From assembly GCA_965195355.1 (NCBI GenBank), contig OZ239627.1, positions 73,185 to 137,184 of the forward strand: DNA of 64,000 nt. Direction: 5' to 3'. Below are positions 389 through 63,098 of the stretch, piece by piece. The stretch is from Rickettsiales bacterium. Its GTDB lineage: Bacteria; Pseudomonadota; Alphaproteobacteria; Rickettsiales; G965195355. Numbering within the stretch: position 1 is the first letter of the stretch; every line of letters starts with the position of its first letter. Under the pieces are notes generated by a model. It saw nothing but the letters and a program-made list of their open reading frames with translations, did no database searches and was not told where the DNA came from. The translations under genes were made by a program, and so were the position numbers.

Positions 389-1327
389 ATGAAGAAGGCA
401 GCGATATTGCTCTCGATTATTGACCCAGGAGTCGCACAAACGATTCTAGAAGAGCTCAAACTCAGTAAAAGTCAATTGCAATCCTTGAGTGATGCAATGG
501 ATAATTATGACACATCCTCGAAAGAAGAGGTAGAAGAGGTCTGCTCTATCGTAATACGTGAGAGTGAAAGTCGAATGCAAGGTATTGATAATAGCTCCGC
601 TAAATCCATGCTACATAACATGCTGAATCAAGATAATTGCACCTGGCAACAGGTCAATACCTTATCACCCAAAGCAATTGCTTCTTATCTCGATCAAGAG
701 AGGCCTGAAATAATCTCTGCGATAATTACAAATTTAGATCGCAATCTATGTACAGAGGTGATCTCTTTATTGTCCCCGGATCTAGCGAATTCTGTTATTA
801 TCTCTCTACTGGATAATCGTAGATTGCATCACAAGATATCTAGCGAGATAGGAAAAGGCATGGCGCAGAAAATAACCAGCGATGAAACACAACAGGATAA
901 TACTCACAATGAACTTATCTCTATTCTATTTGATACAATATCGGAGAATGAGCAATCTAATTTAATTAAGCAAATCGAACCTAAAGATCAAAAATTGGCA
1001 GAAAATTTGAAAAAATGCATACTATCCTTTGAAGATATAGAAACACTCGAATCCAAGGATATGCAAAAATTAATCAGCGCAATAGATAAGAATGACATTC
1101 CGATGGCTCTCAAAGGATGCTCTGAGTCTCTCCAGGGTCAATTTTTCAATAATATATCTGAGCGCGCGACACGAATATTAAAAGAAGATATGGACATCAT
1201 TGGTTCTGTCTCAACAAAGGATGTAGCATCTGTACAAAAGAAAATCCTATCATCATTGAAATCTTTAATACGCGAAGGTGCAATTAAGATTGGCAATCAG
1301 AATGAACAAGAGGACATGATCTCATAA
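389..1327 (+). CDS. fliG: Flagellar motor switch protein FliG
   Basis: N-terminal KAAILLSI... and C-terminal MALKGCSESLQGQFFNNISERATRILKEDMDIIGSVSTKDVASVQKKIL match the FliG N- and C-domain signatures (ALKGA...NMS.RA...ED.E.LGPV...DVE.AQ). Confidence 0.8.
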   Translation: MKKAAILLSIIDPGVAQTILEELKLSKSQLQSLSDAMDNYDTSSKEEVEEVCSIVIRESESRMQGIDNSSAKSMLHNMLNQDNCTWQQVNTLSPKAIASYLDQERPEIISAIITNLDRNLCTEVISLLSPDLANSVIISLLDNRRLHHKISSEIGKGMAQKITSDETQQDNTHNELISILFDTISENEQSNLIKQIEPKDQKLAENLKKCILSFEDIETLESKDMQKLISAIDKNDIPMALKGCSESLQGQFFNNISERATRILKEDMDIIGSVSTKDVASVQKKILSSLKSLIREGAIKIGNQNEQEDMIS

Positions 1328-36060: not shown

Positions 36061-36990
36061 TTAACTTAAACAACATGACATGCCGCCACAACATATAGCA
36101 GCATTCGTAGCATTCGAACTACATATGCTAGTGCAACAACAATATCCAATACATGCTTTATCACCCGTTCTTGCAGTCGCTACAATACTTGCGATAATTA
36201 CAGCAACAGCTGCAAATATTCCAATAGCACAAATTGCAATATTGCACTTCACAGCAGATTCATCAATAACACCAGGAGCACCATGGATGATAGATCTGCT
36301 CAATTCTCCAATTGGACGCAGCATAAAACTCATAAAGCTATGACCACGTGCTTTCATTATTGCAGATGTCATGGAAAGTACACAAAAAACAGTGGCACCA
36401 ACAGCAAACATCATCATAGTAGCATTAATTGCTCCAACACATATTGACGAGTTCAATTTTTTTTCACCTTTCTCTTTAGTACCAGAAATCTTATGCATCA
36501 AGGCAATTTGTAAAATTGCAAACAGCGATATACCAATAATAATACCAGCAACTGCCATTGTGAAACCAAAATGATTAGAACCACCAGATTCAATGTGTTT
36601 ACCAACACCCACCTCTTTCAATATTCCATCAGTAGAAGAGTGCAAATCTTGCAAAGCAAGATAATGATGACGAACGATCACAGGTGCATGGTATATTGGG
36701 CGACGATATATCGGATGATATCCACCAAGATGAACATGACCAAACGCACCACATCCATACGCAATCCCACATCCAGCACCAGAAATCACTATCAATCCGA
36801 TTAATATCGCAAGCGCAATTGCACCCGAATTCACATCACTGGAGCTTGTGCTTCTGTATCTTCTTGATCTAGGACCAGTGTGAACAATATCTACTACTGT
36901 AGGTGCAAAAGGATCCAACACACTATCTGAGTAATAACCATCATCCACAATCAATTGATCACCATACTCCAATTCATCATACGAAAGCAT
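36061..36990 (-). CDS. Hypothetical polytopic membrane protein with a Cys-rich tail ending in a CaaX-like box (CCLS)
   Basis: 309 aa, about 4 TM segments. C-terminus reads CIGYCCCTSICSSNATNAAICCGGMSCCLS*. Confidence 0.6.
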   Translation of the reverse strand: MLSYDELEYGDQLIVDDGYYSDSVLDPFAPTVVDIVHTGPRSRRYRSTSSSDVNSGAIALAILIGLIVISGAGCGIAYGCGAFGHVHLGGYHPIYRRPIYHAPVIVRHHYLALQDLHSSTDGILKEVGVGKHIESGGSNHFGFTMAVAGIIIGISLFAILQIALMHKISGTKEKGEKKLNSSICVGAINATMMMFAVGATVFCVLSMTSAIMKARGHSFMSFMLRPIGELSRSIIHGAPGVIDESAVKCNIAICAIGIFAAVAVIIASIVATARTGDKACIGYCCCTSICSSNATNAAICCGGMSCCLS

Positions 36991-37042
36991 AAATCACCTT
37001 ATCACATCCATTCATAAGCATATTAATGCATATTCAACATAT

Positions 37043-37243
37043 TTAGAATCCAAATACACTATCAAATCTCGCAGATTCCGATACAGCATAGTCAGTATCA
37101 GAATTTATAGAGTTATCCATTCTCGAATATATATACTCCCCGTCTGCATCCGGACTCGTAGGTCGCAGATCTGTAGGAGAACCTGGAGCACTGCCACCAA
37201 GGTTATGCAAAACGCATTCGTATTTAAATTCACCATTATTCAT
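37043..37243 (-). CDS. Hypothetical small acidic protein
   Basis: 66-aa ORF heading the three-gene minus-strand cluster. No recognisable motif. Confidence 0.3.
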   Translation of the reverse strand: MNNGEFKYECVLHNLGGSAPGSPTDLRPTSPDADGEYIYSRMDNSINSDTDYAVSESARFDSVFGF

Positions 37244-38270: not shown

Positions 38271-41200
38271 ATGCAAGAGTCACGTGTCAGTAACTTAATT
38301 CAGATAACACAAGCGCAAGAAGATGGCACTAAAAAGATATTGGCAGATACAACTCCAATATTAGCATTAATAAATAGAATTATTGGAATTCCATTTTCTA
38401 GCGCTACACCACCTCCAGAAGTAGAATTTGCTGATATAGATAATTTTGTTGAAGAGCGCTTCATAAGAAATATTGCTGTGTCACGACAAGCATTCATAGA
38501 CACAATAAGAAGAATTAAACCAGATCACATATTTAGAATTCAAAAATTGCTGAATGACAAGAAACCTCATCTAGATCATTTATTCAATATCACTAAACAA
38601 CGCAACAATAAAGAGATCGATAGCACATTTCTACTGAGGTTATGCACAGAGAATCCAAATTCAATTCTCTTAAAGCTAGAAGAATTAATCCAAGACACTT
38701 CTATAAAGACAAAATATAGAAAAATTTTAAAAGACTTAAAAGATTCAGTGAAAAACTTCACTTCCGCATATATAAATCTAGAAGAACATAGCGTTAGTGA
38801 TGAACGTCTTATACAAAATGCATCAAGAGAAATCTTGAAATTAGAAGATTCGGGTTTTGCAACAATTGGAAATGCACAATTTGTAGAAGATATCAAATCC
38901 CTTAAAAGGGAATTAACACAATTACAATGTGCAATTATTACAGGAACAGAAGAAGACATATCAGGAACATTGAGTTGTATACAACACAAAAGAGTTAAAT
39001 TAGAGAGAGAGACTTTAAAGATCTCGCGAAGTGATTCTTTACAAATACACGTACTGGATTCTGCTATTAATAAATTGGAAAAATTACAATGCATTCACAA
39101 GAATCATTTAAAAATCAAAGCTCAAATAGATGAATTGCTCTTCGAATTAAGAAAACTTAAGCACGAAATATCTAATATAAAAGATCCAAAACAATTAATA
39201 GCATTAAGGAATGTTGTTTCAGATCTTATCTTAGATCCTGTGTTAGAAAATGGTGATAAACTCAGTCTTGAAAGTACAGAGTATCAATCTAAGACATGCT
39301 CAGTCTCGAATGAACGTCTCATTGAAAACAACCTAATATACACTACAAACATTCTTAGATCTTTATCTTCCAAAGAAAAAAAATTTTTTGATCATAGTAA
39401 GGAAAAATTCTGCAATAGAAAGAAGAATGTTATTCGAATTCTCCTAAATGAGAAAACAGGAGCACTAGAACTTGGGATTGATACTAGTACTAAAGAGAGA
39501 AAAACTGATCTTGTGAACGCATTAACAATGTGTAGGAATATAGAGACAGAGCGTGATTCACATTATTATTCCTTTGATTATTTTAGAAAAATATTAGAAA
39601 TAGCTAGAAATCCACGGGATGGAGCTACTTTGAATTCTAGAGTGTGCAATTTCATCAAGACTCAATTCTATAAGATAGAAGAATATCATGCACCAAATAC
39701 AAGAGAAATAGAAAATTTCACTATCCCAGAACAACTTAGAACAATAGAGGGATTTGTTACTCCTGATACTGAAGTACTGAGAGAAATTGTCAGAAATCTA
39801 GAAGAAAGAATAAAAGAAAGAATTGAGAACATTAGGAAATTTATTGAAAATGATCATGAATCACCCATAAAACTAAAAGATCTTATTGATATAGGAAAAG
39901 ATCTTGTTTTTATAAAACAGGCACATAATTTCATTCATGAAATAACAAGAATTGGTGGAATTTATGATGAGATTTCCGAAAGATCAAAGGAGTATGCGAG
40001 AAGATGCGAAGAAATAGAAAAATTAAAAGCTAGGATATCAGCTCTCAAAAGAAGCGAAAGATGGTTCAATGGAGAGAAAAGAAGAGAATTAGATGCAGAA
40101 ATAAGAGCACTAGAAGAGAGAAATGAGAAACTTAAATCAGATCTGAAAGAGATAAAAGGAGAATATGATATAGAGAATGGTGTGTGTGATACTTTTCGTA
40201 GACACATATCTATGTTAACTCACGTTGAAGCTGCAATCACTGGTATTGCATCGCGCACACAAGATACAGAACTCAATTCCGAAACACTGAGTGATCTAGA
40301 ATCATTGATATTTAGTAGCATTAAGAATCTATTTCTTGGTGCTACTAGATCTATTGGTACAATGCATACAAAAAAACACAAAACACCGAAATCATCAAGT
40401 ACACAACATGGATCTTTTTCAATGAATCGCATAGTTAGGAAGATCACAAAAATACATGCAAGCGCTACAAGAAGTGTATTAATTCCAGGACAAGATGAAG
40501 CAAAATCATTAGTGAAGCGCGATTTTACACAATATTTCCTTGATTCAGTCATCCAAATGCCACAGTGTGATGCTAGAAAACAAATTGAGCAAGGAATTGT
40601 CACAATACATCAAACATCAAAACACATAGGAGCTAATGTCGCTGGAAAACTTGCAAAATTTGCAACTAATTCCACTACTTTGGGAGTAGATAAAATTCTA
40701 GATCCGATTTTATCATTATTAGATCAATTAGAATCAGAAGGAGAAATAGATGGAATAGAATTGATCTTCTCAAGTCATGAATCTATACAAGAGCATATAA
40801 AGAAATTTTTTGACTCCAAAGGACACATAGATCCAAACAAGATGACATTTGATGATGCAACAGAGTTTGCACTAAATAGTAAAATTGGATTACTAGGAAT
40901 CGAAGGAATATCTATATACACAAGAAAGGAAAATGAACCACGAACTACACATAGAATTCTCGATTTCAAAAAAATATCGCAAATGAGATCCACGAAACCC
41001 AGCAGATCTGGATTAAAGAATGCTCTTAAAACTGGAGAACTAAGTGAATTTATACATCTCAATCCTATTGTTGATTTTGTACATAAAACGCTCGTAATAA
41101 AAATACTTGAAGAGTTAAAATTAATAAAAGAGCATCAAAATTCTCTAGATCAAGGGTTTATTGCAAGACAACTTTTGAAAAAAGATCCTAAACATTATGG

Positions 41201-41507
41201 TTTTGTAAAGCATGATTATGACTTGGAGAAGGTGTATCCAGATATTTATGGTCTTGCAAGAATTTTGAACATGGTAGATCAAGCGGCTCACACAATACCA
41301 GAAGTTGCATCTGTTATCTCCACTATAGTGGGAGATACAACGCAATACACTGAAGGACGCAAAAAATACCAAGATCTTAGAATAGCAGAAACACAACCGA
41401 CTGAATCAAAAAACTCATCAAGATGCAAACCTGGAACTATAATATGTGGAGCTCTTGTGGTAACGACTTTCACGATTATGGGTGCAGTAATAGGAAAATA
41501 TGCATAA
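38271..41507 (+). CDS. Large (1078 aa) hypothetical coiled-coil protein with a C-terminal tail-anchor TM
   Basis: Long Lys/Glu/Leu/Ile-rich helical stretches, e.g. RCEEIEKLKARISALKRSERWFNGEKRRELDAEIRALEERNEKLKSDLKEIKGEY. Ends ...GTIICGALVVTTFTIMGAVIGKYA*. Confidence 0.65.
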   Translation: MQESRVSNLIQITQAQEDGTKKILADTTPILALINRIIGIPFSSATPPPEVEFADIDNFVEERFIRNIAVSRQAFIDTIRRIKPDHIFRIQKLLNDKKPHLDHLFNITKQRNNKEIDSTFLLRLCTENPNSILLKLEELIQDTSIKTKYRKILKDLKDSVKNFTSAYINLEEHSVSDERLIQNASREILKLEDSGFATIGNAQFVEDIKSLKRELTQLQCAIITGTEEDISGTLSCIQHKRVKLERETLKISRSDSLQIHVLDSAINKLEKLQCIHKNHLKIKAQIDELLFELRKLKHEISNIKDPKQLIALRNVVSDLILDPVLENGDKLSLESTEYQSKTCSVSNERLIENNLIYTTNILRSLSSKEKKFFDHSKEKFCNRKKNVIRILLNEKTGALELGIDTSTKERKTDLVNALTMCRNIETERDSHYYSFDYFRKILEIARNPRDGATLNSRVCNFIKTQFYKIEEYHAPNTREIENFTIPEQLRTIEGFVTPDTEVLREIVRNLEERIKERIENIRKFIENDHESPIKLKDLIDIGKDLVFIKQAHNFIHEITRIGGIYDEISERSKEYARRCEEIEKLKARISALKRSERWFNGEKRRELDAEIRALEERNEKLKSDLKEIKGEYDIENGVCDTFRRHISMLTHVEAAITGIASRTQDTELNSETLSDLESLIFSSIKNLFLGATRSIGTMHTKKHKTPKSSSTQHGSFSMNRIVRKITKIHASATRSVLIPGQDEAKSLVKRDFTQYFLDSVIQMPQCDARKQIEQGIVTIHQTSKHIGANVAGKLAKFATNSTTLGVDKILDPILSLLDQLESEGEIDGIELIFSSHESIQEHIKKFFDSKGHIDPNKMTFDDATEFALNSKIGLLGIEGISIYTRKENEPRTTHRILDFKKISQMRSTKPSRSGLKNALKTGELSEFIHLNPIVDFVHKTLVIKILEELKLIKEHQNSLDQGFIARQLLKKDPKHYGFVKHDYDLEKVYPDIYGLARILNMVDQAAHTIPEVASVISTIVGDTTQYTEGRKKYQDLRIAETQPTESKNSSRCKPGTIICGALVVTTFTIMGAVIGKYA

Positions 41508-45818: not shown

Positions 45819-46304
45819 TTAAAAATTGAAATCAGTATTCAAATGACCGTTTTCATATTTGAAATCAAAATGATCATGACTAGAAAAAACATTATTCTGC
45901 AAATCATGATGAGAAGGCAATTTTCCACTCCATATAACTTCAGTCACAGCATCATCTACAAACTTCTCTGTAATTGAAGGACGAGAATACAAATCAACTT
46001 CTACCCCTTTGTCATTCAAATGGAAAAATATATCTGAAGAACTTCCATCATTGTGATGAATGTGCTCTATAAAATTCACATCTCCAGTTGCATGTCCTTT
46101 TTCATCAACCTTAAAACTAGGTATATCTTCAACTACGCTATCGCCATCTCTATCGATGTAATGATGACCATCCTTCAAATCATTATCCATGTGTGCGTGA
46201 ATTCCTTTAAAACCACTATTCTTGAAAAAACTAGCAGCTTCTTCAATATTAATTTTTACTCTATGTAAATCAAAATCTCTGTTGTTACTCATATAAAACC
46301 TCAT
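45819..46304 (-). CDS. Hypothetical His/Asp-rich protein
   Basis: 161 aa with many H, D and HH/HxH clusters. Ends ...TDFNF. Confidence 0.45.
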   Translation of the reverse strand: MRFYMSNNRDFDLHRVKINIEEAASFFKNSGFKGIHAHMDNDLKDGHHYIDRDGDSVVEDIPSFKVDEKGHATGDVNFIEHIHHNDGSSSDIFFHLNDKGVEVDLYSRPSITEKFVDDAVTEVIWSGKLPSHHDLQNNVFSSHDHFDFKYENGHLNTDFNF

Positions 46305-49869: not shown

Positions 49870-50742
49870 ATGGAGAGTAAATTGAATAAATTTTCATCTG
49901 GTCTTCCAGGTGCTATATCGGGAATTTCTGATGAGAGGAGTATATCTTTAAATTTAATTCTTGGGTCTGTATCATCATTTGTGATTATAGGTCTTGTTTT
50001 AAAGGAAACCCATCATGAATTTTCTATCTTGTCTCATAAAAATGCATGGTTTGATTCTCTTATAATAAATAGCGCATTATTTGTGTCTATATTGCTAGTT
50101 TCTTTTCTTTGTTTAGTGTCAAGCTATTTTAATAGGAAGGTAGCAGATCATGCTTTATGGGGGATTGATCAACGTAGTAAATATATTGATAAGGCGCAGA
50201 ATGTTCATATTATAATGCAACTCATATTACTTCCCGTAAGCTTAGTTTCTTTTATAATTTATTTTCCACTTACAATTGCTATTTATTGCATAAAAATGAT
50301 AGCAAACAAAAGACATGAAAATGATGCGCACAAAGAGAGATTACGAAATAAAGATGGATATCTGGATTCTGAAAACAAACGTCTTATGAATGAAAATAGA
50401 GATCTGAAATGTGAAAAAGAAAATCTACAAGATGTAAACAGAGATTTAAAAATGAGAATGAAACATTGTGATAATAGATTGGGTGTGTTGCAATCTGATT
50501 TGCGTTATGTGAACGAGAGGCTTTATATGATTCGACACGAGGAGAGATTTCGTAAATTGAAGAAGGGGTTTAATTATCGAGATAAACCCATTAGTAATTC
50601 TCATTCTATAGAGACAGAAGTTGGTGATGCTATTGATAGAATTAATGAATCTATAAGACGTGTGGATCGCGATATTGGAATGCTTGGTGAAACGAGACAT
50701 AGTAAAGCTTTTTGTACTTTGTGTCATGATTATCATTTGTAA
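49870..50742 (+). CDS. Hypothetical protein: three N-terminal TM segments plus a coiled coil; architectural paralogue of 34647..36017
   Basis: GYLDSENKRLMNENRDLKCEKENLQDVNRDLKMRM follows the TM block. The equivalent in 34647..36017 is DYLEDQNRDLRSDL...DIRDLK. Confidence 0.55.
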   Translation: MESKLNKFSSGLPGAISGISDERSISLNLILGSVSSFVIIGLVLKETHHEFSILSHKNAWFDSLIINSALFVSILLVSFLCLVSSYFNRKVADHALWGIDQRSKYIDKAQNVHIIMQLILLPVSLVSFIIYFPLTIAIYCIKMIANKRHENDAHKERLRNKDGYLDSENKRLMNENRDLKCEKENLQDVNRDLKMRMKHCDNRLGVLQSDLRYVNERLYMIRHEERFRKLKKGFNYRDKPISNSHSIETEVGDAIDRINESIRRVDRDIGMLGETRHSKAFCTLCHDYHL

Positions 50743-51424: not shown

Positions 51425-52303
51425 ATGGAAATGGTGAGAGGTGCAGCAGGTGCTGTTGGAAATGGATTTTCACGTGCGGTGGATGCTGCTGGTAATGCAT
51501 TGGGTTTTGGTACTGCAACTGGAGTGTCAAATCCAGCATATGATAATGAAGCGGAGAATATGGAGGTAAGTGGAGCAACAAGAACTCATGTAACTGCTCC
51601 TGGAGCTGATCCACCTCCAGCATATTCTGATTCAACAGCTTTTACAATTAAATCAGGATCTTCTCTTGCACCAAGTGCTCCTCTAGCAGAAGGAACTACT
51701 CCTAGTATACCAAGTAGTATGTCAACAAATGCAACTGAGAATGGTATAGTTAAAAGCGAATTTCTAAAGAAAATTGGAATTACACATTATGGTAAAGTAG
51801 GAAGAGAAAAATTCGCTACTGATGCGAAAAGCAAAATGAACTTGGTGGTAATACCAATGTTTACTGGATTTTGCACTTCAGTTCTATATGCAATTGGAAT
51901 AGGAATTGACAAAACGGGATCAGATAAAATTAAAAAAGCAAGGAACATTCATCATGTAGAACAAGGAATTAATAGATTTTCTTCTTGGTTTATTCTTTTA
52001 GCTATAGCTTTGTGTTCCGATTATAGTAGACATCATAGGTTTCCATTTTCTCATAGTATTAATTCATGTAAAAATGCTATTGCTGTAGCATTTATAGTTG
52101 CAGTATTTTTGACATTGGCTCTATTTATAATAGATAAAGTGAATCATGAGAAATTTCACAATAAAACAATTAACAATATAACTCATTTTATATTTTCCAT
52201 TCCCGGAAATGTACTACTCGCTCCTGTAACTGTTCCTGTTGTAGCGCTTGGTTGCGCTCATCAAAGAGGTATGATTGGTAAATCAGATGAAACAGCTAAA
52301 TGA
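51425..52303 (+). CDS. Hypothetical membrane protein with a Gly/Ala-rich N-terminal region carrying NPAY and PPPAY motifs
   Basis: 292 aa. NPAY at 51530-51541, PPPAY at 51611-51625, then about 4-5 TM segments. ATGA overlap with the ccmH start. Confidence 0.55.
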   Translation: MEMVRGAAGAVGNGFSRAVDAAGNALGFGTATGVSNPAYDNEAENMEVSGATRTHVTAPGADPPPAYSDSTAFTIKSGSSLAPSAPLAEGTTPSIPSSMSTNATENGIVKSEFLKKIGITHYGKVGREKFATDAKSKMNLVVIPMFTGFCTSVLYAIGIGIDKTGSDKIKKARNIHHVEQGINRFSSWFILLAIALCSDYSRHHRFPFSHSINSCKNAIAVAFIVAVFLTLALFIIDKVNHEKFHNKTINNITHFIFSIPGNVLLAPVTVPVVALGCAHQRGMIGKSDETAK

Positions 52304-59709: not shown

Positions 59710-61413
59710 ATGGAAGGTACTCATTCTTTGTCAATAGAAGAACTTTTAAAAGTTGGTGCTCATTTTGGACATAGTAAATCTATATGGAACCCTAAAATGG
59801 CTCCATTCATATACGGGCTTGCGCGCAACAATGTGCATATTTTAGATCTCGCTAAAACCGTCCGTCTTTCTCAGGAGATTTGCAAATTCATTGCGGGTCT
59901 TGCATCCTCGAATAGGAATATATTGTTTGTAAGCACAAAACCTCATACTTCTGAGATAGTAAAGAAATATGCTGAAGAATGTGGACAATTTTACGTGAAT
60001 AATAGATGGAGACCTGGTGCCCTTACTAATTGGAAAGAGGGGATAAAATCCATGAAGAAACTCAAGAAATATGATGAATTATTAGATTCAGAAGTGCGAT
60101 CTCAAAGTTATACCAAGAAGGAAATTGCGAAAATTAGAAGGAAATATGATAAATTGCAGAATTCTGTTGGTGGTATACGCGATATGAGATCAATTCCTGA
60201 TTGCTTATTCGTTTTGGATGTCAATAAAGATAGGATTGCTATATCTGAAGCAAATATGTTGGGAATTCCTGTTATAGGTGTATTAGATAGTGATTCTAAT
60301 CCTGATGGCATAGATTACCCTCTCCCTGCAAATGATGATTCCACGAAAACAATTGATATTGTGTGTGCGTTTATTGCGCGTTGTTACAATGCAAACGTTT
60401 CAGAGCGTGGGAGGAGGTCAAGATCTGTGGATGATATTAGAAGTCATTCTAATTCAGAAAGAGGAAATAAGCGCCTTAATAGAGGAGATACACCAAAAGC
60501 AGAATCAGAATCGAAGAAAGTAGTGAAATCAGAAACCATGAATAAAGCGCCAAAAATAAAAGAAAAAGATGCAGATGTGGATTTGATTAAGCGCATTCGT
60601 AGTGTTACTGGTGCTGGCATATTGGATTGTCGCAATGCTGTTAAAGAGTCGAATGGTTCTGAGGAGAAAGCCGTTGAAATTCTAAGAAAGAAAGGAATTG
60701 CTTCTGCGGACAAAAAATCAGAACGAGACACAGATGAAGGATTGGTTTATGTGCACAATATAAGCAATGCTAAATTAGCATTGTTGCAGTTGTCATGTGA
60801 GACAGATTTTGTAGCTAAGGGTGAGAAGATTAGGAATTTTGCAGAATCTCTGTGTGATGAAATGATATCAAAAGATGTGCAGGGTGTTAATCCCAATATA
60901 AGTCCTTTTGAGGATTCATTGAAATCTTGCATATCTTCTGTTGGTGAAAACATAAGGATTCCGTATTTTAGAGTATTTGATACGTCAAAAAGTGGATCAG
61001 TGATATATTACATTCATAATAAATATAGCGGTAGTAATGTTTCTGGAAAAATGGCTTCCATTGTTGTGTTTGATGGGAAATCTGATGAGTTTGGAGAACA
61101 TATAGCAATGCATATAGCAGCTAATGCACCTAAATATTTGGATCGAAAGAGTGTACCTCAGAGAGATATCGATAAAGAAAGAGAGATTCTAATGGCACAG
61201 GTTGCAGAATCTGGAAAAAAGGGAGACGTTATAGATAAGATAGTAGATGGAAGAATGCAGAAATTTTTCGCAAGTAATGTTTTGCTTGAGCAGAAATACT
61301 TGATGGATGATTCTAAGACAGTAGGTAAATTTCTCGAGAGTTCTGGTGTGCATATTGTCAAATATTGTCTTGCAAGGATTGGAATTGACATAATTGAGCA
61401 AGATGCTTCTTAA
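59710..61413 (+). CDS. rpsB: Single 567-aa ORF fusing ribosomal protein S2 (N-terminal about 232 aa) with elongation factor Ts (C-terminal about 285 aa) through a basic/Ser-rich linker
   Basis: S2 part: LLKVGAHFGHSKSIWNPKM, NNRWRPGALTN, VLDVNKDRIAISEANMLGIPVIGVLDSDSNP. EF-Ts part: LIKRIRSVTGAGILDCRNAVKESNGSEEKAVEILRKKGIASADKKSERDTDEG...CETDFVAKG. There is no stop codon between the two. An in-frame ATG at 60538 could start tsf. Confidence 0.85.
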   Translation: MEGTHSLSIEELLKVGAHFGHSKSIWNPKMAPFIYGLARNNVHILDLAKTVRLSQEICKFIAGLASSNRNILFVSTKPHTSEIVKKYAEECGQFYVNNRWRPGALTNWKEGIKSMKKLKKYDELLDSEVRSQSYTKKEIAKIRRKYDKLQNSVGGIRDMRSIPDCLFVLDVNKDRIAISEANMLGIPVIGVLDSDSNPDGIDYPLPANDDSTKTIDIVCAFIARCYNANVSERGRRSRSVDDIRSHSNSERGNKRLNRGDTPKAESESKKVVKSETMNKAPKIKEKDADVDLIKRIRSVTGAGILDCRNAVKESNGSEEKAVEILRKKGIASADKKSERDTDEGLVYVHNISNAKLALLQLSCETDFVAKGEKIRNFAESLCDEMISKDVQGVNPNISPFEDSLKSCISSVGENIRIPYFRVFDTSKSGSVIYYIHNKYSGSNVSGKMASIVVFDGKSDEFGEHIAMHIAANAPKYLDRKSVPQRDIDKEREILMAQVAESGKKGDVIDKIVDGRMQKFFASNVLLEQKYLMDDSKTVGKFLESSGVHIVKYCLARIGIDIIEQDAS

Positions 61414-62119
61414 TGAAAAACTTAATAGAATTCTGATCAAGATATCAGGTGAATTTTTTTCCTCTTCTGACAAGTTGTTGGATATGAGAAAGATATCTTC
61501 TGTTTCTGAGGATTTGTGTTGTATCAATAAGCAGGGAATAGAGACAGGAATTGTAGTTGGGGGTGGAAATATTTGTCGAGGGAGAGATATTTCTGGTATT
61601 GATAAGATAATCGCTGATCAGGCTGGGATGCTTTCTACTGTAATCAATGGCTTGGTATTATCAGATGTATTGAGGCAAAAGAATGTCAAGGTTCGAGTGC
61701 TTTCTTCAGTTCCTATGAGTGGAATATGTGAGCTTTATTGCAGAAGTAGAGCGCTTGAATATATTAATTCAGGTGAAATATTGATATTTGTATGTGGTAC
61801 TGGGAATCCTATTTTTACTACTGACACTGCTGCAGCACTGAGGGCTGTAGAGATGAAATGCGATGTATTTCTTAAAGGAACTCATGTTCCAGGTGTTTTT
61901 TCTAAAGATCCAAGAGAATCTAATGATGCAAAACATCTACATAAGGTTTCTTATCATGATATCATGAAGATGAAATTAGATGTCATTGATATGTCTGCTG
62001 CATCTATATCTGAATGTGGGAATGTTCCAATCGTAATATTTGATATAAATAAGAAGAATTCTATACTAGATGTCATTGCGGGTAAGGGGCAGTATAGCGT
62101 AATATCGGATGGAGGATGA
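61394..62119 (+). CDS. pyrH: UMP kinase
   Basis: RILIKISGE, VVGGGNICRG and GTGNPIFTTDTAAALRA motifs. Start is probably the ATG at 61403. Confidence 0.9.
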   Translation: MSKMLLNEKLNRILIKISGEFFSSSDKLLDMRKISSVSEDLCCINKQGIETGIVVGGGNICRGRDISGIDKIIADQAGMLSTVINGLVLSDVLRQKNVKVRVLSSVPMSGICELYCRSRALEYINSGEILIFVCGTGNPIFTTDTAAALRAVEMKCDVFLKGTHVPGVFSKDPRESNDAKHLHKVSYHDIMKMKLDVIDMSAASISECGNVPIVIFDINKKNSILDVIAGKGQYSVISDGG

Positions 62120-63098
62120 TAAGATCCATCCACCAACGCAAAAAAAATTGCGAGATTCCAGAGAGAAAGGCAAGACATTCTCCTCAAAAGAATTGTCAAA
62201 ATGCGTAGTATTGTCTTGTTTTTGTCTTTGGTTGTGGGTTATTGCTAAGAGTTTTATCCCACAATTCGTTGTGCTTCTCTCTCAGTTTATTTCGCATCGG
62301 CCAATTAATATCCAAAATGGATTGATAGATATATTCATGTTATGTGCTCCTCATTTGTCATTATTTTTTATATTTAATATTTTAAGTATTGCTTTGCAGA
62401 GATATCCTGTTGCAAGTTTGAATAACATAAATCCTGATCCGAAAAGGATAATGCCTTCATTGAAGAAGATTATATCAATGCAAGTGTTATTTAATCTAAT
62501 CAAGACTGTAATTTTACTTGTGGTAGTGATTTTACTTACTGTGAATGTCATTAAAAATCACTTGCATGAGATTTTATACAATCATAATTATAAGATTATA
62601 TGGAGCATCATTTTTTATATCTTTATATATTCTTCCATTTTGGCTTGTTTTATAGGCATTGTGGATTATATGTATCAGAGACATCAGTTTTTGAAAGGCA
62701 TAAGAATGTCTCATAAGGAGATACAAGATGAATTCAAGGAAACAGAAGGAAATCCTGAAATGAGATCTAAATTGAAGAATATACGACGCAGAAAGGCTAA
62801 AGCGATCATGATGGAGGCAGTGAAATCTGCAACTGTTGTGATTCGCAATCCAGAACATTATGCTGTTGCGTTGAAGTATGATTACGACAGTCCACAGCCA
62901 CCAAGAGTAGTGGCAAAGGGTGTTGATGCAATTGCTTTGAAGATAATAGAGGTGGCGCAATATCATAATGTTAAGATCAAAACTGACAGACCCCTTGCTA
63001 GTAACTTATACTATAGCATTGAGATAGACGATTATATTTCGGAGAAGTTTTTTGTTGTAGTTGCAGAAGTGATTAAATTTGCTAACCAGAACTTATGA
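62109..63098 (+). CDS. flhB: Flagellar (type III) export apparatus protein FlhB
   Basis: N-terminal EDDKIHPPTQKKLRDSREKGKTFSSKEL, four TM segments, KMSHKEIQDEFKETEGNPEMRSKLK, and an autocleavage-site region VVIRNPEHYAVALKY (NPTH as NPEH). Confidence 0.85.
   Translation: MEDDKIHPPTQKKLRDSREKGKTFSSKELSKCVVLSCFCLWLWVIAKSFIPQFVVLLSQFISHRPINIQNGLIDIFMLCAPHLSLFFIFNILSIALQRYPVASLNNINPDPKRIMPSLKKIISMQVLFNLIKTVILLVVVILLTVNVIKNHLHEILYNHNYKIIWSIIFYIFIYSSILACFIGIVDYMYQRHQFLKGIRMSHKEIQDEFKETEGNPEMRSKLKNIRRRKAKAIMMEAVKSATVVIRNPEHYAVALKYDYDSPQPPRVVAKGVDAIALKIIEVAQYHNVKIKTDRPLASNLYYSIEIDDYISEKFFVVVAEVIKFANQNL

Follow-up and report, generated by a model that had tools for sequence, protein, structure and literature searches.

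Does this locus encode a bacterial membrane protein that ends in a eukaryotic-type prenylation signal, or does its unusually cysteine-rich C-terminus resemble one through composition alone? The 309-aa product in question is encoded in a 64-kb stretch of DNA (the window) on a ~991-kb contig from a flagellated member of the Rickettsiales with a small genome (~1 Mb). A first-pass annotation had described a polytopic protein with a cysteine-rich tail that ends in CCLS, and had read these four residues as a CaaX box for farnesyltransferase (FTase). The tail had been read exactly, as the translation of positions 36061-36153 on the reverse strand is CIGYCCCTSICSSNATNAAICCGGMSCCLS, followed by the stop codon. 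The real anomaly is the string of cysteines and not the CaaX match, and the string is far beyond chance. Our leading but tentative reading places the gene product at the host interface, as a membrane protein whose tail can be S-acylated, a possibility that we weigh below against a function inside the bacterium, a neutral origin of the tail, and the prenylation originally proposed.

The ORF is a real, native gene, because it is preceded by a Shine-Dalgarno site and its codon usage resembles that of conserved genes (Table 1). Its start codon is unambiguous, since an in-frame stop lies two codons upstream of the ATG. In frame, the codon-usage log-likelihood ratio (LLR) reaches 0.29 per codon, and out of frame it drops to -0.30 and -0.43; the 28 conserved genes of the window that served as a yardstick have values of 0.14-0.35 per codon. 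It is hardly credible that the ORF arose by chance, is decaying as a pseudogene, or reflects an assembly error. The ORFan status of the protein, an A8 run within the CDS, and a tail devoid of coding signal would fit such an origin, but a 930-nt ORF in DNA of ~39% G+C, with the in-frame codon usage of conserved genes, would not. A functional gene is also indicated by the good Shine-Dalgarno site, by the four helices, which are hydrophobic and well formed, and by an independent gene caller, which predicted the same product. A scan for promoters and terminators at the locus returned the same counts as in shuffled sequence, and no meaningful DNA repeats were found around it.

Table 1. Features of the 309-aa gene and its surroundings, with positions in the window.
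Feature	Position	Strand	Remarks
Complete ORFan gene, four-helix membrane protein	36061..36990	-	309 aa + stop; ATG start; from ORF list
Shine-Dalgarno-like AAGGTG	36995..37000	-	4 nt 5' of the ATG; upstream sequence ...GATAAGGTGATTT-ATG
Acidic, Tyr-rich, disordered N-terminus, residues 1-55	36826..36990	-	DELEYGD, DDGYYSD, DPF; RSRRYR at its end, just before helix 1
Transmembrane helix 1, residues ~56-83	36742..36825	-	Gly-rich; C74, C80; KD peak 2.53; AF2 helix 50-88
His-rich loop, residues 84-140	36571..36741	-	9 His/57 aa; HPIYRRPIYH; predicted outward (periplasmic or luminal)
Transmembrane helix 2, residues ~141-166	36493..36570	-	KD peak 2.51; AF2 helix 130-169
Short Lys-rich cytoplasmic loop, residues 167-183	36442..36492	-	5 K/R per 17 aa; coded in part by A8 run 36457-36464
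Transmembrane helix 3, residues ~184-212	36355..36441	-	Met/Cys-rich (C184, M193-195, C203, M207); KD peak 1.93; AF2 helix 180-214
Transmembrane helix 4, residues ~249-273	36172..36246	-	C249, C254; KD peak 2.88; AF2 helix 244-274
Cys-string tail, residues 274-309	36064..36171	-	C280, C284-286, C290, C300-301, C306-307; predicted cytoplasm-side
Terminal CCLS, residues 306-309, CaaX-type match	36064..36075	-	From translation; yeast FTase data; chance 0.30
Adjacent downstream ORFan, 456 aa	34647..36017	-	3-4 N-terminal hydrophobic segments and long coiled coil; ends CIPS
66-aa ORF upstream of the 309-aa gene	37043..37243	-	Acidic/Tyr-rich (GEYIYS, DTDYAVSE); codon-usage LLR 0.23
Nearby lineage-specific protein, 1078 aa	38271..41507	+	Coiled coils; single hydrophobic segment in last 25 residues (tail-anchored)

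No relatives of the protein came to light at any search depth. A word-indexed search of 5.8 billion clustered proteins and an exhaustive phmmer search of 1.84 billion representative proteins each returned only the query itself, and a scan of metagenome contigs found no relatives. Pfam gave nothing below E = 0.1 and no family even at E up to 10, NCBIfam gave no match, and PDB sequences gave none at E up to 10. By these searches the protein is a strict ORFan, and the protein, representative, and metagenome searches thus yielded no orthologue or paralogue in which conservation of the cysteine at position -4 could be compared. The conserved genes of the window are themselves distant from known sequences, with the nearest NrdR 44-48% identical and the nearest LipB about 52%; judged by sequence, the lineage has no close relative. 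One of the top NrdR matches lies on a contig of 614 bp. At LipB-anchored loci the best LipB matches belong to Wolbachia (~50% identity), and at 42 such loci from GTDB, tblastn found no neighbouring gene except lipB itself in the loci of Wolbachia and other Rickettsiales, so that synteny gave no lead to positional orthologues. The presence of a strict ORFan in a genome of ~1 Mb suggests a fast-evolving, lineage-specific role rather than a housekeeping one.

The polytopic character described by the first-pass annotation was borne out by four Kyte-Doolittle (KD) peaks, and a single-sequence AlphaFold model (AF2) likewise predicts four long helices, at a mean pLDDT of only 47.7 (Table 1). The acidic tyrosine motifs noted earlier near the N-terminus are also present as described, in the sequence MLSYDELEYGDQLIVDDGYYSD. 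Residues 1-55 contain 10 D/E and 4 K/R, with the four basic residues confined to positions 40-46, and residues 1-52 have a pLDDT <50. The positive-inside count of the four-helix protein, with ~11 flanking K/R inside versus 6-7 outside, favours an N-in/C-in arrangement, and the even number of helices, the RSRRYR motif before helix 1, and the Lys-rich loop at residues 167-183 agree with it. By the positive-inside rule the N-terminal 55 residues are thus probably cytoplasmic, and both termini are predicted to lie on the cytoplasmic side, with outward loops that measure 57 and 35 aa and a C-tail of 36 aa. On the KD scale, the helices equal in hydrophobicity those of housekeeping inner-membrane proteins encoded in the same window, which favours ordinary bacterial inner-membrane insertion and counts against a location at the host interface.

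The tail beyond helix 4 is exceptional in composition. It contains 9 Cys in 30 aa, compared to a Cys frequency of 1.8% in the proteome of the window (P = 2e-9 per 30-aa window, ~4e-5 corrected for all windows), and the runner-up among the proteins encoded there has 5 Cys in 30 aa. C280, C284-286, and C290 lie 6-16 residues from helix 4, followed by four further cysteines at 300-307. Residues 276-309 have a pLDDT <50, so that the tail is predicted to be disordered in this low-confidence model, and the positive-inside count favours its placement on the cytoplasmic side. The codon-usage LLR of codons 275-309 is -0.01 in frame and +0.06 in the +1 frame, compared to 0.24-0.35 for residues 1-274, and the Cys codons occur in short runs (TGT TGT TGC, TGT TGT, and TGT TGT).

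These features raise the possibility that the tail is a young extension of an otherwise functional, lineage-specific gene, formed by loss of a stop codon and/or by TGT slippage, and that the cysteines and CCLS alike lack any specific function. Such a neutral origin would account for the lack of a codon-usage signal in codons 275-309, unlike in residues 1-274, for the clustering of Cys codons as short TGT/TGC runs, for the predicted disorder, and for the absence of any homologue that shows maintenance of the tail. Still, we consider it unlikely: by our estimate, 9 Cys in 30 residues would arise with a probability of ~1e-7 or less in random sequence of the same base composition (~3% Cys codons), Tandem Repeats Finder reported nothing at the tail, where there is no real microsatellite, and neither a homopolymer nor a frameshift signature lies close to it. 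Furthermore, reduced genomes probably tend to purge useless, potentially reactive sequence. A frameshift or assembly artefact as the origin of the tail was also considered and rejected; the +1 frame would give VLDIVVALAYVVRMLRMLLYVVAACHVV followed by a stop, and the surroundings of the tail bear no signature of such an event.

The claim that CCLS is an FTase motif held at the level of the motif, as it is competent in published yeast screens. In a Ydj1-based CXXX screen, CCLS reached a heat-map score of 3.90 at an authors' cutoff of 3, and its enrichment factor in the Ydj1 assay was 0.75 versus 0.49 for CVLS of H-Ras (PMC10320760), while a machine-learning classifier assigned it to the canonical CaaX class (prenylated p = 0.90, cleaved p = 0.88; PMC9231725), all of these scores describing yeast enzymes, from which those of the host may differ. 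FTase reacts with most CXXX sequences (PMC10320760), and CCLS therefore adds little information beyond the cysteine at -4. In shuffles of the 30-residue tail, a Cys was found at -4 in 29.8% of the trials, and the CaaX match is thus not beyond chance expectation given the composition of the tail. The simplest account of the terminal CCLS is that it arose incidentally from this Cys-rich composition. Among the 52 ORFs of the window, four have a Cys at -4 compared to 0.94 expected (P = 0.016), the others being a pseudouridine synthase ending in CIKI, the adjacent ORFan ending in CIPS, and one ORF ending in CGPR; of these four, three have no family match and one has. In CXXX sequences, Lys is restricted at a2, as is Arg at X (PMC10320760).

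The original proposal was that CCLS is functional, with host FTase modifying C306 and the upstream cysteines then being palmitoylated as in H-Ras, so that lipidation targets a translocated effector. We regard this as distinctly improbable, even though CCLS scores as a canonical prenylated and cleaved motif, the C-terminus of Salmonella SifA is both prenylated and S-acylated (PMC4951486), and the effector predictor S4TE counts CaaX among type IV effector features. The CxxS ending shared with the adjacent ORFan and the excess of -4 cysteines in the window also point towards it. Against this, composition alone predicts the -4 Cys in 30% of cases, and two of the four ORFs with such a residue would be poor or unlikely substrates (the housekeeping CIKI, and CGPR). 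With four membrane helices, the protein has no need of a prenyl anchor, the cited papers do not describe the known CaaX effectors as polytopic membrane proteins, and neither an export signal nor orthologues were found. A CaaX match within a Cys-rich tail carries almost no information alone, and predictors that score this feature, S4TE among them, should take local composition into account.

The C-terminus offers indirect evidence against export. C-terminal basicity and hydrophilicity are type IV effector features in S4TE (PMC3814349). H, R, and K are absent from the last 25 residues, which have zero net charge and a GRAVY of +0.98 (+0.55 for the whole protein), and the C-terminus thus lacks both features and has no recognisable type IV-like signal. 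As statistical tendencies rather than absolute rules, type IV membrane effectors have 1-2 segments (~80%), outward loops <30 aa (~80%), and a C-tail >70 aa (>60%) (PMC12981334). The 309-aa protein departs from this simple topology in the number of its segments, in both outward loops, and in its tail. Membrane segments are nevertheless found in ~30% of the predicted type IVA substrates of Brucella and Rickettsia, and very hydrophobic type IVA substrates can be secreted via an inner-membrane intermediate (PMC12981334, PMC11602083). Neither virB nor virD4 genes for type IV secretion are present in the window, where the only export genes are flagellar; FliG, FliD, flagellin, and FlhB are encoded there. 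A literature search for palmitoylated Rickettsiales effectors returned nothing relevant.

The protein may instead be a resident of the bacterial inner membrane that never meets host enzymes. Its Cys string, the Cys and Met residues of helices 1, 3, and 4, and the His-rich loop would then bind soft metal ions such as Cu, Zn, or Fe or carry out thiol chemistry, and CCLS would be a coincidence. By analogy, the layout would resemble that of a Ctr-type copper importer, in which metal captured on the outside moves along thioethers and thiols within the membrane and reaches a cytoplasmic tail rich in Cys. Adjacent-Cys clusters are metal sites in the extensions of bacterial and plant P1B-ATPases. All six cysteines outside the tail (74, 80, 184, 203, 249, and 254) lie in or at helices, helix 3 has an MMM motif and two more Met, and the outward loop is rich in His. 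KD peaks of 2.5-2.9, as in housekeeping membrane proteins, together with long outward loops, match the default profile of SRP/Sec insertion, and both the C-terminus, which does not resemble a secretion signal, and the expected frequency of the -4 Cys given the tail fit a protein that stays in the bacterium. We hold this function to be only slightly less likely than a role at the host interface, but several points count against it. Searches of Pfam, NCBIfam, and PDB sequences linked the protein to no transporter or metal-binding family, even at E = 10, the adjacent genes have no relation to metals, and the His enrichment of loop 84-140 is only marginal once corrected (P = 8.5e-6 per window, 0.15 corrected). 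One would also expect a role in core metal homeostasis to show conservation, which does not fit a strict ORFan. If the tail does bind metal inside the bacterium, the protein would represent an unclassified kind of membrane metal-handling protein.

The neighbourhood supports the host-interface reading, as the gene is grouped with other lineage-specific ORFans that encode membrane and coiled-coil proteins (Table 1). The adjacent 456-aa ORFan, separated by a gap of 43 nt, may be co-transcribed with it, and a homology search with this CIPS-ending protein returned only a self match. Within the window, the 309-aa protein is unrelated to the 456-aa ORFan, the 66-aa ORF, and the other membrane ORFans. 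The 66-aa ORF in particular has no significant similarity to its N-terminus, and the grouping of the two is uncertain. Elsewhere in the window, polyproline FH1-like repeats and a PPPAY motif mark further ORFans.

The analysis shows the gene, its helices, the Cys string, the ORFan status, and the FTase competence of CCLS; for the 309-aa protein as a host-interface membrane protein, we infer topology, export, location, and every lipid modification. It would be one of several host-interface membrane ORFans clustered at this locus and would end up in the host-derived membrane round the bacterium, exposing both termini to the host cytosol. If host enzymes reach the tail, S-acylation is the first candidate modification, given the juxtamembrane position of the Cys string. 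Host DHHC enzymes would S-acylate the juxtamembrane cysteines, and this modification would pin the tail to the bilayer and direct the protein to particular membrane domains. Host FTase could plausibly farnesylate C306 on chemical grounds, but this step would be optional, and membrane anchoring would not depend on it. The presence of genes of the same kind in the cluster, i.e. the CIPS-ending membrane/coiled-coil ORFan and the tail-anchored 1078-aa ORFan, favours this interpretation, against which stand the lack of a basic C-terminus and of a type IV gene in the window, the atypical topology, and the tail without codon-usage signal. A bolder version appears very unlikely, namely a polytopic effector in the host-derived membrane that is both farnesylated at C306 and S-acylated along the Cys string. 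Such an effector would be the first known of its kind. Its gene would lie in an Inc-like island for lineage-specific membrane and coiled-coil proteins that extends beyond nrdR and flanks lipB on both sides, with a neighbour that also ends in CxxS. If the tail is lipidated by the host, mimicry of host lipidation would extend from the soluble effectors of Legionella and Salmonella to a multi-pass membrane protein and would reach a poorly known flagellated branch of the Rickettsiales in which no effector has been characterised, and the locus would mark a small island of candidate host-interface proteins.

Several known systems share parts of this design. Like Legionella AnkB and the Pel proteins, and Salmonella SifA and GtgE, the protein comes from a host-associated lineage and has an FTase-competent CxxX end, and, as in SifA, the cysteines just upstream of CxxX are candidates for S-acylation. 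AnkB, Pel, SifA, and GtgE differ in that their secretion signals and translocation have been demonstrated and the lipid is their main membrane anchor, whereas the protein described here has four helices, no type IV-like C-terminal signal, no orthologues, and a -4 Cys expected by chance in 30% of cases. Another parallel is the Batten disease protein CLN3, a polytopic protein with a cytosolic CQLS end, which can be farnesylated in vitro and influences sorting (PMC6900386). The 309-aa protein is likewise polytopic, ends in C-x-L-S, and has a predicted cytosolic C-terminus, so that the precedent of CLN3 makes a CaaX box on a multi-pass protein not absurd. CLN3 differs in its 6 helices, in its conservation from yeast to human, and in lacking a Cys string, and the two proteins have no sequence relationship.

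Chlamydia Inc proteins and the membrane effectors of Legionella, Coxiella, Brucella, and Rickettsia resemble the 309-aa protein in being lineage-specific, in their predicted N-in/C-in arrangement with disordered termini, and in having membrane and coiled-coil ORFans as neighbours. Unlike these type III and type IV membrane effectors, it has four segments, long outward loops (57 and 35 aa), and a tail of 36 aa. Juxtamembrane Cys strings that are S-acylated are found in viral and eukaryotic membrane proteins, for example in the coronavirus spike endodomain and in cysteine-string protein. With these the 309-aa protein shares a dense Cys run (CC, CCC) that begins within ~10 residues of the point where a membrane helix ends on the cytosolic side. 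The spike and cysteine-string type of protein is made in the eukaryotic secretory pathway beside the DHHC enzymes, whereas the protein described here is made in a bacterium, from which it would have to be exported. Finally, metal transporters carry Cys/His-rich extensions, as in the termini of P1B-ATPases and in the Ctr1-type layout. The outward His-rich segment, the Met and Cys residues of the helices, and the adjacent cysteines of the cytoplasmic tail follow the same layout, in a protein that differs from P1B-ATPases and Ctr1 in having neither transporter homology nor metal-related neighbours nor conservation.

The 309-aa, four-helix membrane protein whose cysteine-rich tail ends in CCLS is encoded by a real gene, as indicated by its start site, its codon usage and an independent gene call. 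The reading frame is the sole ORF at its locus (ORF finder, window), and re-translation matched exactly the coordinates, tail and acidic tyrosine motifs of the first-pass annotation: the N-terminal sequence is MLSYDELEYGDQLIVDDGYYSD, and positions 36061-36153 (minus strand) translate to CIGYCCCTSICSSNATNAAICCGGMSCCLS followed by the stop. The ATG is preceded by AAGGTG at a distance of 4 nt and by an in-frame stop two codons upstream, which makes the start unambiguous. A codon model trained on the window's 28 conserved genes gives the ORF an in-frame score of 0.29 per codon (conserved genes, 0.14-0.35); its out-of-frame scores are -0.30 and -0.43. The same 309-aa product was called independently (P0001) on the contig of 991,359 bp. 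A non-gene or artefact is thus scarcely credible, with the caveat that codon usage gives no signal over the final 35 codons (in-frame score -0.01; +1 frame, +0.06). This lack of signal and the short TGT runs in the tail would fit a young neutral extension, a reading that we consider unlikely.

No search retrieved anything but the protein itself, whether against 5.8 billion clusters (word-indexed), 1.84 billion representatives (exhaustive phmmer), metagenome contigs, Pfam or PDB sequences (both at E up to 10), or NCBIfam; judged by sequence, it is unclassified as a protein family. Kyte-Doolittle peaks of 2.53, 2.51, 1.93, and 2.88 at residues ~56-83, 141-166, 184-212, and 249-273 correspond to long helices at 50-88, 130-169, 180-214, and 244-274 in a single-sequence AlphaFold model, which has a mean pLDDT of 47.7 and stays below 50 everywhere outside the four helices. 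Residues 1-55 are acidic and predicted to be disordered (10 D/E; DELEYGD, DDGYYSD, and DPF, with RSRRYR at the end). The Gly-rich helix 1 (C74, C80) is followed by a 57-aa loop with nine His, including HPIYRRPIYH, and helix 2 by a 17-aa loop with five K/R. Helix 3 (C184, MMM at 193-195, C203, M207) and helix 4 (C249, C254) are separated by 35 aa, and the 36-aa tail has Cys at 280, 284-286, 290, 300-301, and 306-307. By the rule of thumb of counting helix-flanking K/R (~11 vs. 6-7), an N-in/C-in orientation is favoured, which would place both termini in the cytoplasm and the His-rich loop outward.

Cysteine makes up 1.8% of residues across the window's 52 proteins, and nine Cys within 30 residues of the tail (P = 2e-9 per window, ~4e-5 corrected; five per 30 residues in the second-richest protein) are therefore a real anomaly. 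In contrast, the CaaX match does not exceed chance, as Cys falls at position -4 in 29.8% of shuffles of the tail. Among the window's ORFs, the excess of Cys at -4 is mild (4 of 52 vs. 0.94 expected, P = 0.016), comprising an RluD-type pseudouridine synthase (CIKI), a 174-aa protein of unassigned function (CGPR), the adjoining 456-aa ORFan (CIPS), and the CCLS protein. One of the four is a housekeeping enzyme, and two of the endings carry residues disfavoured by farnesyltransferase (FTase). The first-pass annotation had read CCLS as a box farnesylated by the host, and as an FTase substrate it is indeed plausible: in the complete yeast Ydj1-CXXX screen, it has an enrichment factor of 0.746 (H-Ras CVLS, 0.494; cleaved canonical motifs score poorly in this assay) and a heat-map score of 3.90 against the authors' cutoff of 3 (PMC10320760), and a machine-learning classifier for yeast motifs gives 0.90 for prenylated and 0.88 for cleaved (PMC9231725). 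However, the majority of CXXX sequences were FTase-reactive in the same work, so the motif adds little beyond a Cys at -4. On its own, the CaaX match is weak evidence, and that a functional CaaX drives targeting of the protein is improbable; the Cys string is the feature that deserves a test.

On the minus strand, a 66-aa ORF, the CCLS gene, the 456-aa ORFan, and nrdR follow each other with gaps of 52, 43, and 74 nt; the opposite flank is occupied by divergent lipB and a tail-anchored ORFan of 1078 aa. The 66-aa product has no significant similarity to the N-terminus of the CCLS protein, and the reading frames differ. The 456-aa ORFan, which found only itself among 5.8 billion proteins, has an Inc-like architecture. 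The 45-nt repeats of a 606-aa ORFan encode GAAGSVAPPAPPPPP, an FH1-like polyproline, in blocks flanking a non-repeat core; possible binding partners of this protein are profilin, actin, and SH3 or WW domains. Of two further membrane proteins (Table), one has an Ala/Gly/Pro-rich N-terminus with a PPxY-like PPPAY, and the other, with a coiled coil after its hydrophobic segments, resembles the 456-aa ORFan. Membrane ORFans with short eukaryote-like motifs thus seem to be numerous in this lineage, making a host-facing role of the CCLS protein more likely a priori without establishing it.

Table. Features in the window
Feature	Position	Strand	Description
FliG	389-1327		flagellar
FliD	13397-14689		flagellar
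Flagellin	14742-15716		flagellar
606-aa ORFan	29335-31155	+	N-terminal membrane segment; perfect tandem repeats of 45 nt in two blocks
Repeat block	29676-29895		4.9 copies, 100% identical
Repeat block	30890-31056		3.7 copies
NrdR ORF	34111-34572	-	153 aa including zinc ribbon; database version is only 106 aa long and begins at an internal Met, so that gene call appears N-terminally truncated
456-aa ORFan	34647-36017	-	3-4 N-terminal hydrophobic segments, then long coiled coil; C-terminus CIPS
CCLS protein	36061-36990	-	309 aa
A8 homopolymer	36457-36464		T8 on plus strand; in Lys-rich loop joining helix 2 to helix 3 of CCLS protein; potential slippage site, ORF intact across it
66-aa ORF	37043-37243	-	directly upstream of CCLS gene; codon score 0.23, gene-like; acidic Tyr motifs GEYIYS, DTDYAVSE
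1078-aa ORFan	38271-41507	+	just past lipB; coiled coils, one hydrophobic segment in last 25 residues; no family match
161-aa protein	45819-46304	-	no family match; 9.3% His, no Cys
Membrane protein	49870-50742	+	no family match
Membrane protein	51425-52303	+	no family match
rpsB-tsf	59710-61413	+	S2 (residues ~12-225) and EF-Ts (residues ~357-558) in one 567-aa ORF; basic linker, no stop between domains; genuine fusion or lost stop codon
FlhB	62109-63098		flagellar

LipB shares at most ~52% identity with Wolbachia and other Rickettsiales (closest, Wolbachia, ~50%), and no gene order around it is shared with the loci compared from these organisms; the closest NrdR is 44%-48% identical. Besides flagellar genes, the window (G+C ~35%) encodes PutA, enolase, an EAL protein, SecF, and an ECH_1013-like regulator scoring below that family's cutoff. 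These features suggest a flagellated lineage of Rickettsiales that has a ~1-Mb genome and no close sequenced relative. Rickettsiales live in obligate association with eukaryotic hosts, and host prenyl- and acyl-transferases are therefore present in their environment.

Several features count against export. No type IV secretion genes were found in the 64-kb window. The last 25 residues are hydrophobic, free of H, R, and K and without net charge, and thus lack the C-terminal basicity used by the type IV effector predictor S4TE (PMC3814349). According to a 2026 review, ~80% of type IV membrane effectors have one or two segments, ~80% of their outward loops are shorter than 30 aa, and the C-tail exceeds 70 aa in over 60% (PMC12981334), whereas the CCLS protein has four segments, outward loops of 57 and 35 aa, and a 36-aa tail. 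Its helices match the window's housekeeping inner-membrane proteins in hydrophobicity. Export would still be compatible with an inner-membrane intermediate, as highly hydrophobic effectors may enter the inner membrane before the secretion system extracts them (PMC11602083), and with the predicted N-in/C-in orientation, which dominates among type IV membrane effectors. The protein may instead, though this is doubtful, reside in the inner membrane and bind metal or thiols through its tail: the hydrophobic helices, long outward loops, missing export signal, His-rich loop predicted to face outward, and Cys and Met within the helices speak for it, but the protein belongs to no family (Pfam, NCBIfam, PDB sequences), is not conserved and has no metal-related neighbours.

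We tentatively prefer, with limited confidence, a host-interface membrane protein that host DHHC enzymes would S-acylate along its juxtamembrane Cys string, with farnesylation of C306 (position -4) as an option. This reading draws on the protein's ORFan status in a reduced genome, its ORFan neighbours, the competence of CCLS, and a tail built in the manner typical of S-acylated membrane proteins from eukaryotes and viruses. Host-prenylated CaaX effectors are an established idea already used by effector predictors, and a lipidated tail would be at most an unproven variation on it. If true, its novelty would lie in the multi-pass protein, the full Cys string and a lineage of Rickettsiales without characterised effectors; our literature search found no palmitoylated Rickettsiales effectors. 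A precedent for a CaaX box on a multi-pass protein is the polytopic CLN3, whose CQLS accepts farnesyl in vitro (PMC6900386), and SifA is a bacterial effector that combines prenylation with S-acylation (PMC4951486).
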